This document shows positions 31,342-34,300 of a stretch of 64,000 nt of DNA, one piece after another; position 1 is the stretch's first letter, and the number at the start of each line of letters is the position of its first letter. The DNA comes from Escherichia coli (lineage in GTDB: Bacteria > Pseudomonadota > Gammaproteobacteria > Enterobacterales > Enterobacteriaceae). Position numbers and translations under genes: made by a program. The stretch lies in NCBI RefSeq assembly GCF_050920415.1, contig NZ_CP169309.1; one strand, given 5' to 3'. The notes under the pieces were generated by a model. It made no database searches, was not told where the DNA came from, and saw only the letters and a program-made list of their open reading frames with translations.

Positions 31342-34300
31342 TTACGCCTTCTCGATGTTGACTAAGAACGCTTTATATTCCGGCGTTTGCGAGTTTGCAT
31401 CACCGACATTCGGCGTCAGAGTGTTAGCGATATAACCTTTACGCGCGACACCCTCAAAGCCCCAGTGGATTGGAATACCCACCGTTTCAACCTGCTGACC
31501 GTTTACATTCAGTGGTTTCAGACGGCGCGTTACCACAGCCACCGCGCGGATAAAGCCACGCTTGCTGGAGACAGTGACACGATCGCCATTGGCAATGCCT
31601 TTCGCCGCCGCCAGCGTTTCGCTGATTTCCACAAACTGTTCCGGCTGAGCAATTGCGTTGAGCAACGCGTGCTTGGTCCAGGTGTGGAAGTGCTCGGTCA
31701 GACGATAGGTCGTACCCACATACGGGAACTGCTCTTTTTTACCCATCCGCAGCGCGTCTTGTTCATACAGACGAACCACCGGGTTAGACACCACGTTCGG
31801 ATGCAGCGGGTTAGTGCCCAGCGGCGTTTCAATTGGCTCGTAGTGTTCCGGGAACGGACCTTCCGCCATTTTGTTGATGGCAAACAGGCGTCCCATCCCT
31901 TCCGGCTGCATGATAAACGGCCCGGTTGGTGTACCCGGTGCGGCATTGCCGAAGTCCGGAATATCGTTACCCGTCCACTTGCTGCCGTTCCACTGGATCA
32001 GCATCCGTTTCGGATCCCACGGTTTACCGTTGATATCCGCCGAAGCACGGTTGTAGAGTACGCGACGGTTGAGCGGCCACGCCCAGGCCCATCCCAGCGT
32101 ATTCCCCAGACCGGACGGGTCGGAGTTATCGCGGTTAGCCATCTGGTTGCCTTGCTCTGTCCAGCTACCGGTGTAGATCCAGCAAGACGATGCGGTTGTA
32201 CCGTCATCACGCAGATGCGCAAAGCTACTCAGTAACTGACCTTTCTTCGCAATCAGCACGCCATTTGCGTCATAGAGATCTTCCAGCGCATAGCCGTTGT
32301 TCTCTTTTGCCACTTCGTCAGACTGCGGCTCGTGCGGCTGCTTGTAGTTCCAGCTCATCTTCATCAGCGGTTCTACGCCTTTACCACCTTCGGCCTGGTA
32401 CAGCTCGCGCAAATGATGGTAGATACCCGCCAGAATTTCGCCGTCATTACGCGCTTCGCCCGGCGCATCCTGACCTTTCCAGTGCCACTGCAACCAGCGA
32501 CCGGAGTTAGCGATAGAACCATCTTCTTCGGCAAAGCAGGTCGAAGGCAGACGGAATACTTCAGTCTGAATAGACGCCGGATCGACATCGTTCGACTCGC
32601 CATGGTTCTGCCAGAAGGTGGAGGTTTCAGTCACCAGCGGATCGATAACCACCATGTACTTCAGCTTGCTCAGGCAGCTCACCACTTTGTTTTTGTCCGG
32701 GAAGGACGCAACCGGGTTAAAGCCCTGGCAGAAATAACCGGTGACTTTACCTTCATCCATCATGTTGAAATACTTGATGACGTCGTAGGTCTGGTCCCAC
32801 TTCGGCAGCCAGTCGTAGCCCCAGTTGTTCTCTTTCTGCGCAGCATCGCCGTAGAAAGATTTCATCAGGCTAACGAAGAACTTCGGATAGTTGCTCCAGT
32901 AGTTCACCTGATCAGCCAGCGTCGCTTTCGGCGTGTTCGCTTCCAGATACGACTGCAAATCAACCTGTTTTTCTGACGGCAGCGTCAGATAACCCGGCAG
33001 GCTGGTAGAGAGCAGGCCTAAGTCAGTCAGGCCCTGAATGTTGGAGTGACCACGCAATGCGTTCACGCCGCCACCGGCCATACCCATGTTACCGAGCAGC
33101 AACTGGATCATCGCCATAGTACGGATGTTCTGCGCACCCACGGTGTGTTGGGTCCAGCCCAGTGCGTACAGGAAGGTGGTTGTGCGATCCGGCGCGCTGG
33201 TGGAGGCCAGCACTTCACACACTTTCAGGAAGTCAGCTTTTGGCGTACCGCAGATGTTTTCTACTACGTCCGGCGTGTAACGGGAAACGTGCGCTTTCAG
33301 CAAGTTCCACACACAGCGCGGATGAGTCAGTGTTTCATCGCGTTTCGCATAGCCGTTTTCATCGAACTGATAGTTCCAGGACGACTTATCGTACTGACGT
33401 TTTTCAGCGTCGTAACCGCTGAACAGACCGTCTTCAAAAGTAAAATCATCACGCACCAGCAGGCTGGCGTTGGTGTAATGCTTAACGTATTCGGCGTTGA
33501 TCTTGTTGTTTTCGATCAGGTAGCGCAAAACGCCAGACAGGAACGTAATGTCCGTACCGGAACGAATAGGTGCGTAGATATCCGCCACAGAAGCGGTACG
33601 CGTAAAACGGGGATCGACAACGATCAAGGTTGCATCGTTGTTGTTTTTCGCTTCCATCGCCCAGCGAAAACCGACGGGATGCGCTTCAGCAGCGTTACCG
33701 CCCATCACCATTACGACGTTAGCGTTTTTGATATCCACCCAGTGGTTGGTCATCGCACCGCGACCAAATGTTGGAGCAAGACTTGCTACCGTTGGTCCGT
33801 GTCAGACGCGCGCCTGGTTGTCTACCGCCAGCATCCCGAGGGAGCGGGCAAATTTCTGTGTCAGCATCCCGGTTTCGTTGCTGGCACCGGAAGCACACAG
33901 CATACCGGTAGAAAGCCAACGGTTTACCGTTACTCCCTGCTCATTCTTTTCAATAAAGTTAGCGTCACGGTCTGCCTTCATCAGCTTCGCAATGCGGGAG
34001 AATGCTTCTTCCCAGCTAATGCGCTGCCATTTGTCAGAACCTGGCGCACGATATTCCGGGTAGCGCAGACGGTTTTCGCTGTTGACGTAATCCAGCAATC
34101 CGGCCCCTTTCGGGCACAGCGCACCACGGCTTACCGGATGATCCGGGTCACCTTCAATGTGATAAATCGCTTCTCTGGCGTTTTTCGCGCCATCACCCAG
34201 GCTATACATCAATAGCCCGCAACCTACGGAACAGTATGTACAAGTGTTACGGATCTCTTTCGCGCGTAATAATTTGTAGTTTCGCGCCTGAGCCAGTGCT

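Follow-up and report, generated by a model that had tools for sequence, protein, structure and literature searches.

The locus examined here raises a simple question: does a lone TGA inside a long coding frame end a gene, disable it or encode an amino acid? In the window, by which we mean the whole 64,000-nucleotide stretch of Escherichia coli DNA that was analysed, a six-frame list of open reading frames (ORFs) contained two minus-strand ORFs, one at 33802..34389 (195 amino acids) and one at 31342..33753 (803 amino acids, counted from the first ATG). The sequence-only reading had taken them to be two parts of one gene, fdnG, which encodes the selenoprotein formate dehydrogenase-N. Our analysis, which draws on the sequence and on the 1KQF structure, indicates that this locus is almost certainly an intact E. 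coli fdnG in which the UGA at codon 196 is read as selenocysteine under the guidance of a SECIS element.

The fdnG reading frame and its operon

Translation of the minus-strand interval 31342-34389 yielded 1016 codons, that is, 1015 sense codons and a terminal stop, TAA. Exactly one internal stop was present in this frame, a TGA at codon 196 (33802..33804, minus strand; TCA on the plus strand) that is followed by C (UGA-C) and flanked as ...NQARV*HGPTVASLAPTFGRGAMTNHW. The translation thus confirmed that the two ORFs form a single frame split by one TGA in the context ARV-U-HGPTVASLAP, as had been proposed, and no further in-frame stop was found in fdnG besides the terminal TAA. The full frame (31342..34389) was identified as the alpha subunit of formate dehydrogenase-N by its translation, RefSeq, TIGR01553 and chain A of PDB entry 1KQF. 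Its location on the minus strand had not been mentioned in the earlier reading. The N-terminal 33 codons (34291..34389, minus strand), MDVSRRQFFKICAGG...ALA, read off the translation, include an RRQFFK motif; from general knowledge of FdnG, we take this stretch to be a putative twin-arginine (Tat) export signal.

Two comparisons at the protein level span the TGA. In NCBIfam searches, for which Sec was replaced by Cys in the query, the product matched TIGR01553, the equivalog model for FdnG, with 1621 bits (cutoff 814) over residues 2-1014 in one stretch across the UGA. Chain A of 1KQF is a single chain of 1015 residues with a non-standard residue, X, at position 196; this residue aligns with the UGA of the window, between ...NQARV and HGPTV..., and the other 92 aligned residues are identical. 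We take PDB entries 1KQF and 1KQG to be structures of E. coli formate dehydrogenase-N. The notion that the locus comprises two separate genes, one for a 195-amino-acid protein ending at the TGA and one for an independently initiated protein of about 803 amino acids, can draw on an ATG located 16 codons past the TGA and on the existence of NCBI protein accessions for the 803-amino-acid form, but it is extremely improbable given that both the TIGR01553 match and the 1KQF chain run unbroken across the junction and that the 16 codons between the TGA and the ATG (HGPTVASLAPTFGRGA) are among the most conserved of the protein.

A single frame that continues through the TGA is also the exception within the window. 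A six-frame scan returned five single stops with at least 150 stop-free codons on each side, and among these only the codon-196 UGA of fdnG lay inside a gene and had a SECIS match 3' of it. Three of the five were antisense to annotated genes, two of them within fdnG and the third within gadB. A fourth was the true stop of fdnG, which is by chance in frame with fdnH; none of these four was a recoding site. An antisense ORF on the plus strand (33046-34215; 389 amino acids) had neither an NCBIfam match nor an annotation and was regarded as an ordinary antisense ORF.

The genes that follow fdnG complete a formate dehydrogenase operon. Next in the operon is fdnH, encoding the iron-sulfur beta subunit (30445..31329, minus strand; TIGR01582, 482 bits, cutoff 335; RefSeq), and last is fdnI, encoding the cytochrome b gamma subunit (29799..30452, minus strand; NF007558 and RefSeq). 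The gamma subunit scored 487 bits on the FdnI model NF007558 (cutoff 339), whereas its score of 268 bits on the FdoI model NF007924 was under the cutoff of 341. The fdn genes have yddG, narU-narZ and yddM-adhP as neighbours, with neither fdhD nor fdhE among them. The nucleotide sequence of fdnG showed 100% identity with a RefSeq-annotated fdnG, and the window as a whole was 99.99% identical to E. coli strain MFDS1022581, one IS2 insertion aside. Because of the full RefSeq identity, the synteny with yddG, narU and yddM, and the passing of the FdnI model together with the failing of the FdoI model, the gene is, as judged from its sequence and surroundings, fdnG and not its paralogue fdoG. The same identity, synteny and subunit models, along with the SECIS match described below, support the original assignment to the selenoprotein formate dehydrogenase-N.

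The SECIS element 3' of the UGA

The hairpin anticipated by the sequence-only reading was found as a full match to the Rfam family SECIS_3 (RF01989) at 33749..33807 (minus strand), starting 3 nucleotides (nt) before the UGA. The match covered positions 1-59 of the 59 in the covariance model with 84.3 bits, above the gathering score of 63 (E 1.3e-20). We also tried SECIS_2 (RF01988), the fdhF type, as the class of the element; its score of 28.8 bits falls under the threshold of 70, and the element is therefore classed as SECIS_3. The interval originally flagged, 33762-33804, does hold the UGA and the 40 nt 3' of it but ends short of the full element: the lower helix of the Rfam model continues for 3 nt more (to 33759) and the Rfam match for 13 nt more (to 33749).

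The upper part of the element is a 7-bp apical stem-loop, GG-U-AGCAA-GUC-UUGCU-CC (33773..33790, minus strand), which spans +15 to +32 (the U of the UGA being +1). It was seen in the minimum free energy (MFE) fold of the single sequence and in the Rfam consensus structure, and its top five pairs were also predicted by RNAalifold. A bulged U in the 5' arm of the apical stem (33788, minus strand), unpaired in both the MFE fold and the Rfam structure, lies at +17, the position equal to U17 in the fdhF SECIS, and both structures place G23-U24-C25 in the apical loop (33780..33782, minus strand). This stem-loop would be the part bound by SelB. Below it, the 5' arm of a lower helix directly 3' of the UGA (33792..33801) pairs with a 3' arm at 33759..33767, both on the minus strand. 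The Rfam structure and the MFE fold each contain this helix, in registers that differ, and in the Rfam register it includes two non-standard pairs, A.G and A.C.

In a published consensus for bacterial SECIS elements (PMC13188914, Fig. 2A), the upper stem has 4-16 bp and carries an apical loop of 3-9 nt; one or both of the first two loop bases are G, in most cases with G or U next; and the minimum free energy is -7.5 kcal/mol or lower. The fdnG element agrees with these published criteria in 4 of 4 respects. Its GUC loop has 3 nt, or 5 nt should the closing A-U pair open, and the upper stem beneath it has 7 bp and a single bulged U; the loop begins with G-U (33782-33781); and the spacing, with 19 nt separating 33802, the A of the UGA, from 33782, where the loop starts, conforms as well. 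The free energy of -14.6 kcal/mol (MFE, 50 nt from the UGA) lies within the published limit and is not better than that of shuffled sequence, with z = -1.03 and 25 of 200 shuffles folding equally well or better. Because z was only -1.03, we rejected folding energy as stand-alone evidence. Positions U17, G23 and U24 have been described as conserved in SECIS elements, with U17 and G23 being sites of SelB binding (PMC8659212). The element in fdnG has all these features of the fdhF paradigm, namely a minimal upper stem-loop starting from 11 nt after the UGA, the bulged U17 and the loop G23/U24.

Together, these features outline how the UGA would be decoded. The fdnG product is the catalytic subunit of the nitrate-inducible formate dehydrogenase-N, and the mRNA 3' of the UGA is predicted to fold into a bacterial SECIS hairpin with a bulged U at +17 and a loop G-U at +23/+24. 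On established knowledge of such elements, SelB carrying GTP and Sec-tRNA(Sec) would bind the apical stem-loop; the approaching ribosome would melt the lower helix, and the tethered SelB complex would deliver Sec-tRNA(Sec) to the UGA in the A site. Delivery would be in competition with release factor 2, and the selenocysteine, once inserted, would serve as a ligand of the active-site molybdenum, both as expected from what is established for this system. Of 5426 complete E. coli genomes, 5425 carried the selAB operon, and fdnG itself was likewise found in 5425. Within the window, there were no sel genes (selA, selB, selC or selD) and no tRNA genes.

Comparison with known elements and conservation across species

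In K-12, the gene, the position of the UGA (Sec196) and the hairpin are all the same as in the window. Many E. coli strains, among them the K-12 derivative NEB10-beta, carry exactly the same 66-nt element in their fdnG (100% identity). Over its full length, the gene shows 1-5% nucleotide divergence from most E. coli alleles, with no functional differences from known E. coli fdnG. The Sec196 codon of E. coli fdnG and its SECIS were reportedly described by Berg et al. in 1991 (J Biol Chem 266:22380, as cited in PMC13188914).

Comparison with fdoG and fdhF, the two other formate dehydrogenase genes named in the sequence-only reading, bore out its expectations. The paralogue fdoG (formate dehydrogenase-O) lies at another locus, with fdoHI-fdhE, and has 77% amino acid and 74.7% nucleotide identity to fdnG. 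Its UGA is likewise codon 196, the K-12 copy likewise scores 84.3 bits on SECIS_3, and K-12 fdoG matches the fdnG of the window at every base of the 50 nt from the UGA. The two are identical for at most 71 nt in a row (33807..33737), a run starting 3 nt before the UGA and extending about 12 nt past the Rfam match and about 22 nt past the base-paired part of the hairpin. This run might reflect more than recognition by SelB, such as recurrent gene conversion between fdnG and fdoG or an extra constraint on the downstream mRNA, although we consider this very unlikely; such a constraint could, for example, take the form of a pause or spacing element that tunes the competition with release factor 2. 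A simple joint constraint on protein and RNA is an alternative explanation for the 71-nt identity, and the data cannot separate these readings.

The SECIS of fdhF is experimentally the best-studied bacterial SECIS. Its gene encodes formate dehydrogenase-H, a different, shorter and cytoplasmic enzyme of 715 amino acids, and shares the context ARV-U-HGP with fdnG. The GGU...GUCU landmarks (G15-G16-U17 and G23-U24-C25-U26) are equally spaced from the UGA in both genes, and a bulged U and a small G-U loop are common to the two. The elements differ in their stem sequences and in the loop, which is GGUC in fdhF but GUC closed by an extra A-U pair in fdnG. The difference is also apparent in the SECIS_2 score, which is 87.1 bits for fdhF (RF01988) and falls short of the threshold of 70 for the window.

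We then considered homologous loci from other species. At least 120 loci, spread over many phyla, had a TGA at the homologous codon. The search pattern demanded a TGA and specified much of columns 1-26, so that the constancy of the UGA and of the element's 5' portion is in part a product of the way the set was collected. These loci bear on whether the TGA is a nonsense mutation that has made fdnG a pseudogene in this strain. A stop-to-stop ORF finder does yield the pieces of 195 and 803 amino acids expected of a broken gene, and such pieces have been deposited as separate or 'partial' proteins. The same TGA, however, recurs at those homologous codons, and 5388 of 5433 E. coli records share its 66-nt context with an identity of 99% or more. 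Both halves of fdnG are free of other stops, RefSeq carries no pseudogene flag and the crystallised protein is one chain spanning the codon-196 site. A pseudogene is accordingly a reading to which we assign next to no weight.

With fdnG taken as intact and its UGA as a selenocysteine codon, the hairpin itself can be followed through many phyla in a set of 90 distinct UGA contexts, all homologous and taken from other species. The apical helix was 97% paired in these 90 homologues, with compensatory double changes in 4 of 7 pairs. Its covariation score was 0.225, compared with 0.123 for shuffles (0 of 500 reached 0.225), a control that treats sequences without regard to their relatedness; in controls in which the register was slid, the score was at most 0.095. 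Three of these covarying pairs involve either synonymous third positions (27/39 and 30/36) or correlated Ala-to-Ser/Ala-to-Gly replacements (28/38), and columns 27/39 and 30/36 change jointly among A-U, G-C and C-G.

The loop is conserved in a similar manner. The loop G was kept in 88 of 90 and the loop U in 90 of 90 distinct homologues, the latter being a synonymous third position. Where the loop codon specifies Ser or Gly, it is always AGT or GGT; GGT was used in all 31 of 31 Gly loop codons, whereas all four synonyms occur at three other Gly codons of that alignment. The invariance of U17 in this alignment (A1) is uninformative because it was forced by the search pattern. Collectively, the patterns of covariation and codon choice show that the apical hairpin is a structured RNA under selection, conserved at the RNA level. 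The comparison across species provides a clear case in which selection on the RNA has shaped synonymous sites within a coding sequence.

The lower helix gave a less consistent picture. It was 81-84% paired across homologues, counting both the Rfam and the MFE registers, almost without compensatory change. RNAalifold, applied to the homologues, did not recover the lower helix and predicted yet another arrangement, in which codons 5' of the UGA are paired. Because Rfam, MFE and RNAalifold disagree and convincing covariation is lacking, we do not claim an exact lower structure.

These patterns also bear on whether the UGA is instead read by a near-cognate standard tRNA (Trp or Cys), with the conservation downstream of it reflecting protein constraint only. 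The MFE z-score that failed to reach significance would fit such a reading, as would the high conservation of the peptide HGPTVASLAPTFGRGAMTNHW itself, and termination is weak at a UGA with C as the next base. Protein constraint alone is nonetheless insufficient, because the covariation of columns 27/39 and 30/36 and the exclusive use of GGT among loop Gly codons fall at synonymous sites. In addition, the score on the curated SECIS model is well over its threshold, residue 196 of the solved structure is a non-standard one and selAB is essentially universal in E. coli. We regard near-cognate read-through as a very remote prospect and retain SECIS-guided insertion of selenocysteine as the reading of codon 196.

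Annotation of the locus

The sequence-only reading had further predicted that automated annotation would miscall fdnG as a pseudogene or as two genes. This does not hold for the current NCBI pipeline, as RefSeq has a single intact fdnG CDS without a pseudogene flag, but it does for stop-to-stop gene callers. Exact 195- and 803-amino-acid fragments exist as separate proteins in public collections, with the 195-amino-acid fragment found on at least 1000 contigs. Miscalling of fdnG is real for stop-to-stop callers, then, and is not universal. The value of the present analysis lies chiefly in annotation, since the biology was already known from the 1991 description and the solved structure of the enzyme. 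The proper annotation of fdnG is one CDS with a selenocysteine translation exception, rather than a pseudogene or two genes. One of the fragment entries in the public collections even bears the name of a sulfate transporter protein.

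One internal UGA in an open fdnG frame

Minus-strand translation of 31342-34389 yields an fdnG frame of 1,016 codons with a single internal stop, a TGA at codon 196 (33802-33804), followed only by the terminal TAA. In the ORF list this shared frame appears as an upstream ORF of 195 amino acids (33802..34389, minus) and a downstream ORF of 803 amino acids from its first ATG (31342..33753, minus). The claim of the sequence-only reading that an in-frame UGA splits fdnG is therefore confirmed, and the peptide context it gave is matched by translation (...LAVDNQARV, the stop, then HGPTVASLAPTFGRGAMTNHW); its interval of 33762-33804 spans the TGA codon and the next 40 nt on its 3' side. 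Across all six frames of the window, only five single stops have at least 150 stop-free codons on either side. Of these, three lie on the strand opposite an annotated gene (two within fdnG and one within gadB), one is the true fdnG stop, by chance in frame with fdnH, and only 33802-33804 falls inside a gene.

The identity of the enzyme and its operon was likewise observed directly. Over its 3,048 nt the gene matches fdnG of E. coli strain MFDS1022581 at 100% identity, and fdnG of almost every other complete E. coli genome at 95-99%; strain MFDS1022581 matches the whole window at 99.99% identity except for a ~1.33-kb insertion. The gene was found in 5,425 of 5,426 complete E. coli genomes, most of which carry a second, more distant match, fdoG. 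With selenocysteine replaced by cysteine for the search, the protein scored 1,621 bits on NCBIfam TIGR01553 (cutoff 814) in one unbroken stretch (residues 2-1014). Downstream lie fdnH, which matches TIGR01582, and fdnI, which scores above the cutoff of NF007558, whereas the FdoI model falls below its own cutoff. RefSeq annotates a single CDS, 'formate dehydrogenase-N subunit alpha', without a pseudogene flag. These model results and the RefSeq entry therefore identify the gene as fdnG, not its paralogue fdoG. In the solved structure (1KQF/1KQG, 'formate dehydrogenase, nitrate-inducible, major subunit'), the protein is a single chain of 1,015 residues; a 93-residue query across the UGA site aligned with 1KQF residues 156-248, identical throughout except at position 196, where the PDB sequence carries X, a non-standard residue.

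The operon is flanked by yddG, a porin gene, narU-narZ and higB/yddM-adhP. Directly downstream of fdnI, and convergent with the operon, are a RelE/ParE-family toxin and a HigA-family antitoxin (yddM; 29009-29571, plus), with a one-base overlap between their coding sequences. Between yddG and narU (35762-39603, plus) are three genes encoding an intact 366-aa porin, a 421-aa hypothetical protein and a 416-aa leucine-rich-repeat protein. RefSeq names the porin 'ompC' despite its position away from the ompC locus, which looks like naming by similarity.

A SECIS hairpin maintained across species

A SECIS hairpin is present 3' of the UGA, as the sequence-only reading had expected: the Rfam model SECIS_3 (RF01989) matched at full length (33749-33807, minus) with 84.3 bits against a gathering score of 63 (E-value of 1.3e-20 in the local search and 1.4e-18 over the whole window). 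As controls, K-12 fdoG scored 84.3 bits on SECIS_3 and K-12 fdhF 87.1 bits on SECIS_2. The fdhF-type SECIS_2 gave 28.8 bits for the fdnG element, below its threshold of 70. Near fdhF in K-12, outside the window and unrelated to the fdnG UGA, we also observed five tandem matches to naRNA4 (RF02564, a nucleoid-associated non-coding RNA), ~113 nt apart in the gltP-yjcO interval (L003:1912-2432, the K-12 fdhF region).

The 50 nt from the UGA fold singly into a hairpin of -14.6 kcal/mol, with a z-score of -1.03 against dinucleotide shuffles, 25 of 200 of which fold as well; the site is not singled out by folding energy alone. Both the minimum free energy (MFE) fold and the Rfam structure place a seven-pair apical stem-loop, GG-U-AGCAA-GUC-UUGCU-CC, at 33790-33773 (minus), with a bulged U at +17 (33788) and the loop G23-U24-C25 (33782-33780). 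Counted from the U of UGA, the fdhF SECIS has G15-G16-U17 and G23-U24-C25-U26 at the same positions. U17, G23 and U24 are conserved SECIS positions, with U17 and G23 contacted by SelB, and the upper stem-loop spans 17 nt, 11 nt from the UGA (PMC8659212). The fdnG element also satisfies all four criteria of a published bacterial model: a loop of 3-9 nt whose first two positions include G, an upper stem of 4-16 bp, a UGA-to-loop distance of 16-37 nt and an MFE of at most -7.5 kcal/mol (PMC13188914).

A degenerate DNA pattern for QARV-UGA-HGPTV, run against a species-representative genome collection, returned at least 120 loci from Gamma-, Beta- and Alphaproteobacteria, Acidobacteriota, an Actinomycetota MAG and relatives of Geobacter and Desulfovibrio. 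Across a gapless alignment of 90 distinct 75-nt contexts from these loci, the apical helix of the Rfam structure is 97% paired, and four of its seven pairs changed on both sides with pairing kept. Columns 27/39 are G-C in 66 sequences, A-U in 11 and C-G in 5; columns 28/38 are G-C in 74 and U-G in 13; columns 30/36 are A-U in 53, C-G in 32 and G-C in 2; and columns 24/41 show a double change in one case only. The apical covariation score was 0.225, compared with 0.123 ± 0.005 after shuffling that ignores phylogeny (0 of 500 shuffles reached 0.225), and fell to 0.095 or less when the 3' partners were slid by 1-3 columns. RNAalifold, blind to the Rfam structure, recovered the top five apical pairs, three with compensatory changes. 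The element thus passes both a curated model and an independent covariation test. Invariance of the TGA, much of columns 1-26 and the bulged U is uninformative, because the search pattern fixed them.

Columns 27, 30, 36 and 39 hold the third bases of Val, Ala, Leu and Ala codons, and at 28/38 the switch replaces Ala by Ser and Ala by Gly in a correlated manner. Pairing is thus kept at the RNA level, in part at the cost of protein sequence. The loop codon is AGT in 57 sequences, GGT in 31 and GCT in two divergent Desulfovibrionaceae-type sequences. All 31 loop glycines use GGT, whereas three other glycine codons of the alignment use all four synonyms. The two divergent loci, from Desulfovibrio and Mailhella MAGs (L028:4116-4190 and L044:750-824), share QARV-UGA-HGPTV and differ beyond it (GUACCGGCUCUGGCAGAG, peptide PALAE); both contribute to the broken apical pairs of the alignment, suggesting a differently shaped SECIS in this lineage.

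The lower helix is poorly supported, with 81-84% pairing; the Rfam and MFE registers differ, and RNAalifold proposes another arrangement. In the Rfam register the window sequence has A.G and A.C mismatches and the alignment shows no double changes; in the MFE register four sequences only have them, at one poorly paired pair. This agrees with the published view that the oncoming ribosome melts this helix, whose contribution is only modest (PMC13188914; PMC8659212).

Of 5,433 E. coli records, 5,388 carry the 66-nt element at 99% identity or more. Protein identity between the window's fdnG and K-12 fdoG (locus L002) is 77% and DNA identity 74.7%, with 61.5% at third positions of conserved codons, yet the two genes share an identical run of 71 nt (33807..33737) that begins 3 nt ahead of the UGA; the second-longest run is 35 nt. 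The 71 nt cover the UGA and SECIS and overshoot the Rfam match by ~12 nt and its base-paired part by ~22 nt. Selection or gene conversion may account for this identity.

Decoding, alternatives and annotation

The SECIS_3 match, covariation and X196 in 1KQF support the selenocysteine reading of this UGA, which, with its SECIS, is an already known feature. Read-through by a standard tRNA with conservation at the protein level only, two separate genes, or a pseudogene are each contradicted by the evidence above, and even together seem very improbable. For selenocysteine insertion, established knowledge suggests that SelB·GTP·Sec-tRNA(Sec) would bind the apical loop (PMC13188914, PMC8659212; Kotini et al. 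2015, PMC4513850) while the ribosome would unwind the lower helix. Sec-tRNA(Sec) would reach the UGA in competition with RF2, and Sec196 would serve as a ligand of the molybdenum of the bis-MGD cofactor. According to Kotini et al. 2015 (PMC4513850), in vivo recoding efficiency is about 30-40% at a stop codon-SECIS site. The window contains no sel gene and no tRNA; the K-12 selA-selB operon was found in 5,425 of 5,426 complete E. coli genomes.

The sequence-only reading also warned that automated annotation would miscall fdnG as a pseudogene or two genes. In a public protein collection, the exact 195-aa fragment is called as a gene on at least 1,000 contigs and the exact 803-aa fragment on 34 contigs with NCBI accessions, whereas the RefSeq/PGAP annotation is correct. 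The warning is therefore limited to stop-to-stop gene callers and does not hold for the current NCBI pipeline, which gives one CDS. One 195-aa N-terminal entry (EFN8991448.1, in the fdnG-fragment cluster P0004) is named 'sulfate ABC transporter substrate-binding protein', which looks like a misannotation from splitting the gene at the selenocysteine codon.

Mobile elements in the window

A group II intron lies at 52437-54254 (minus), where Rfam matches to RF01999 (D1-D4; 54137-54254) and RF00029 (domain V/VI; 52437-52512) bracket an ltrA reverse transcriptase/maturase gene (52514-53836, annotated in the closest genome). It adjoins an ISEc1 transposase (51171-52307) and an IS256-family fragment (50761-51156). 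An IS2 insertion (~55962-57290, plus), absent from the otherwise 99.99%-identical NZ_CP169399.1, has terminal inverted repeats of ~33 nt and ORFs matching IS2 TnpA (276 bits) and TnpB (728 bits); its site is intergenic, between a small hypothetical gene and yncG.
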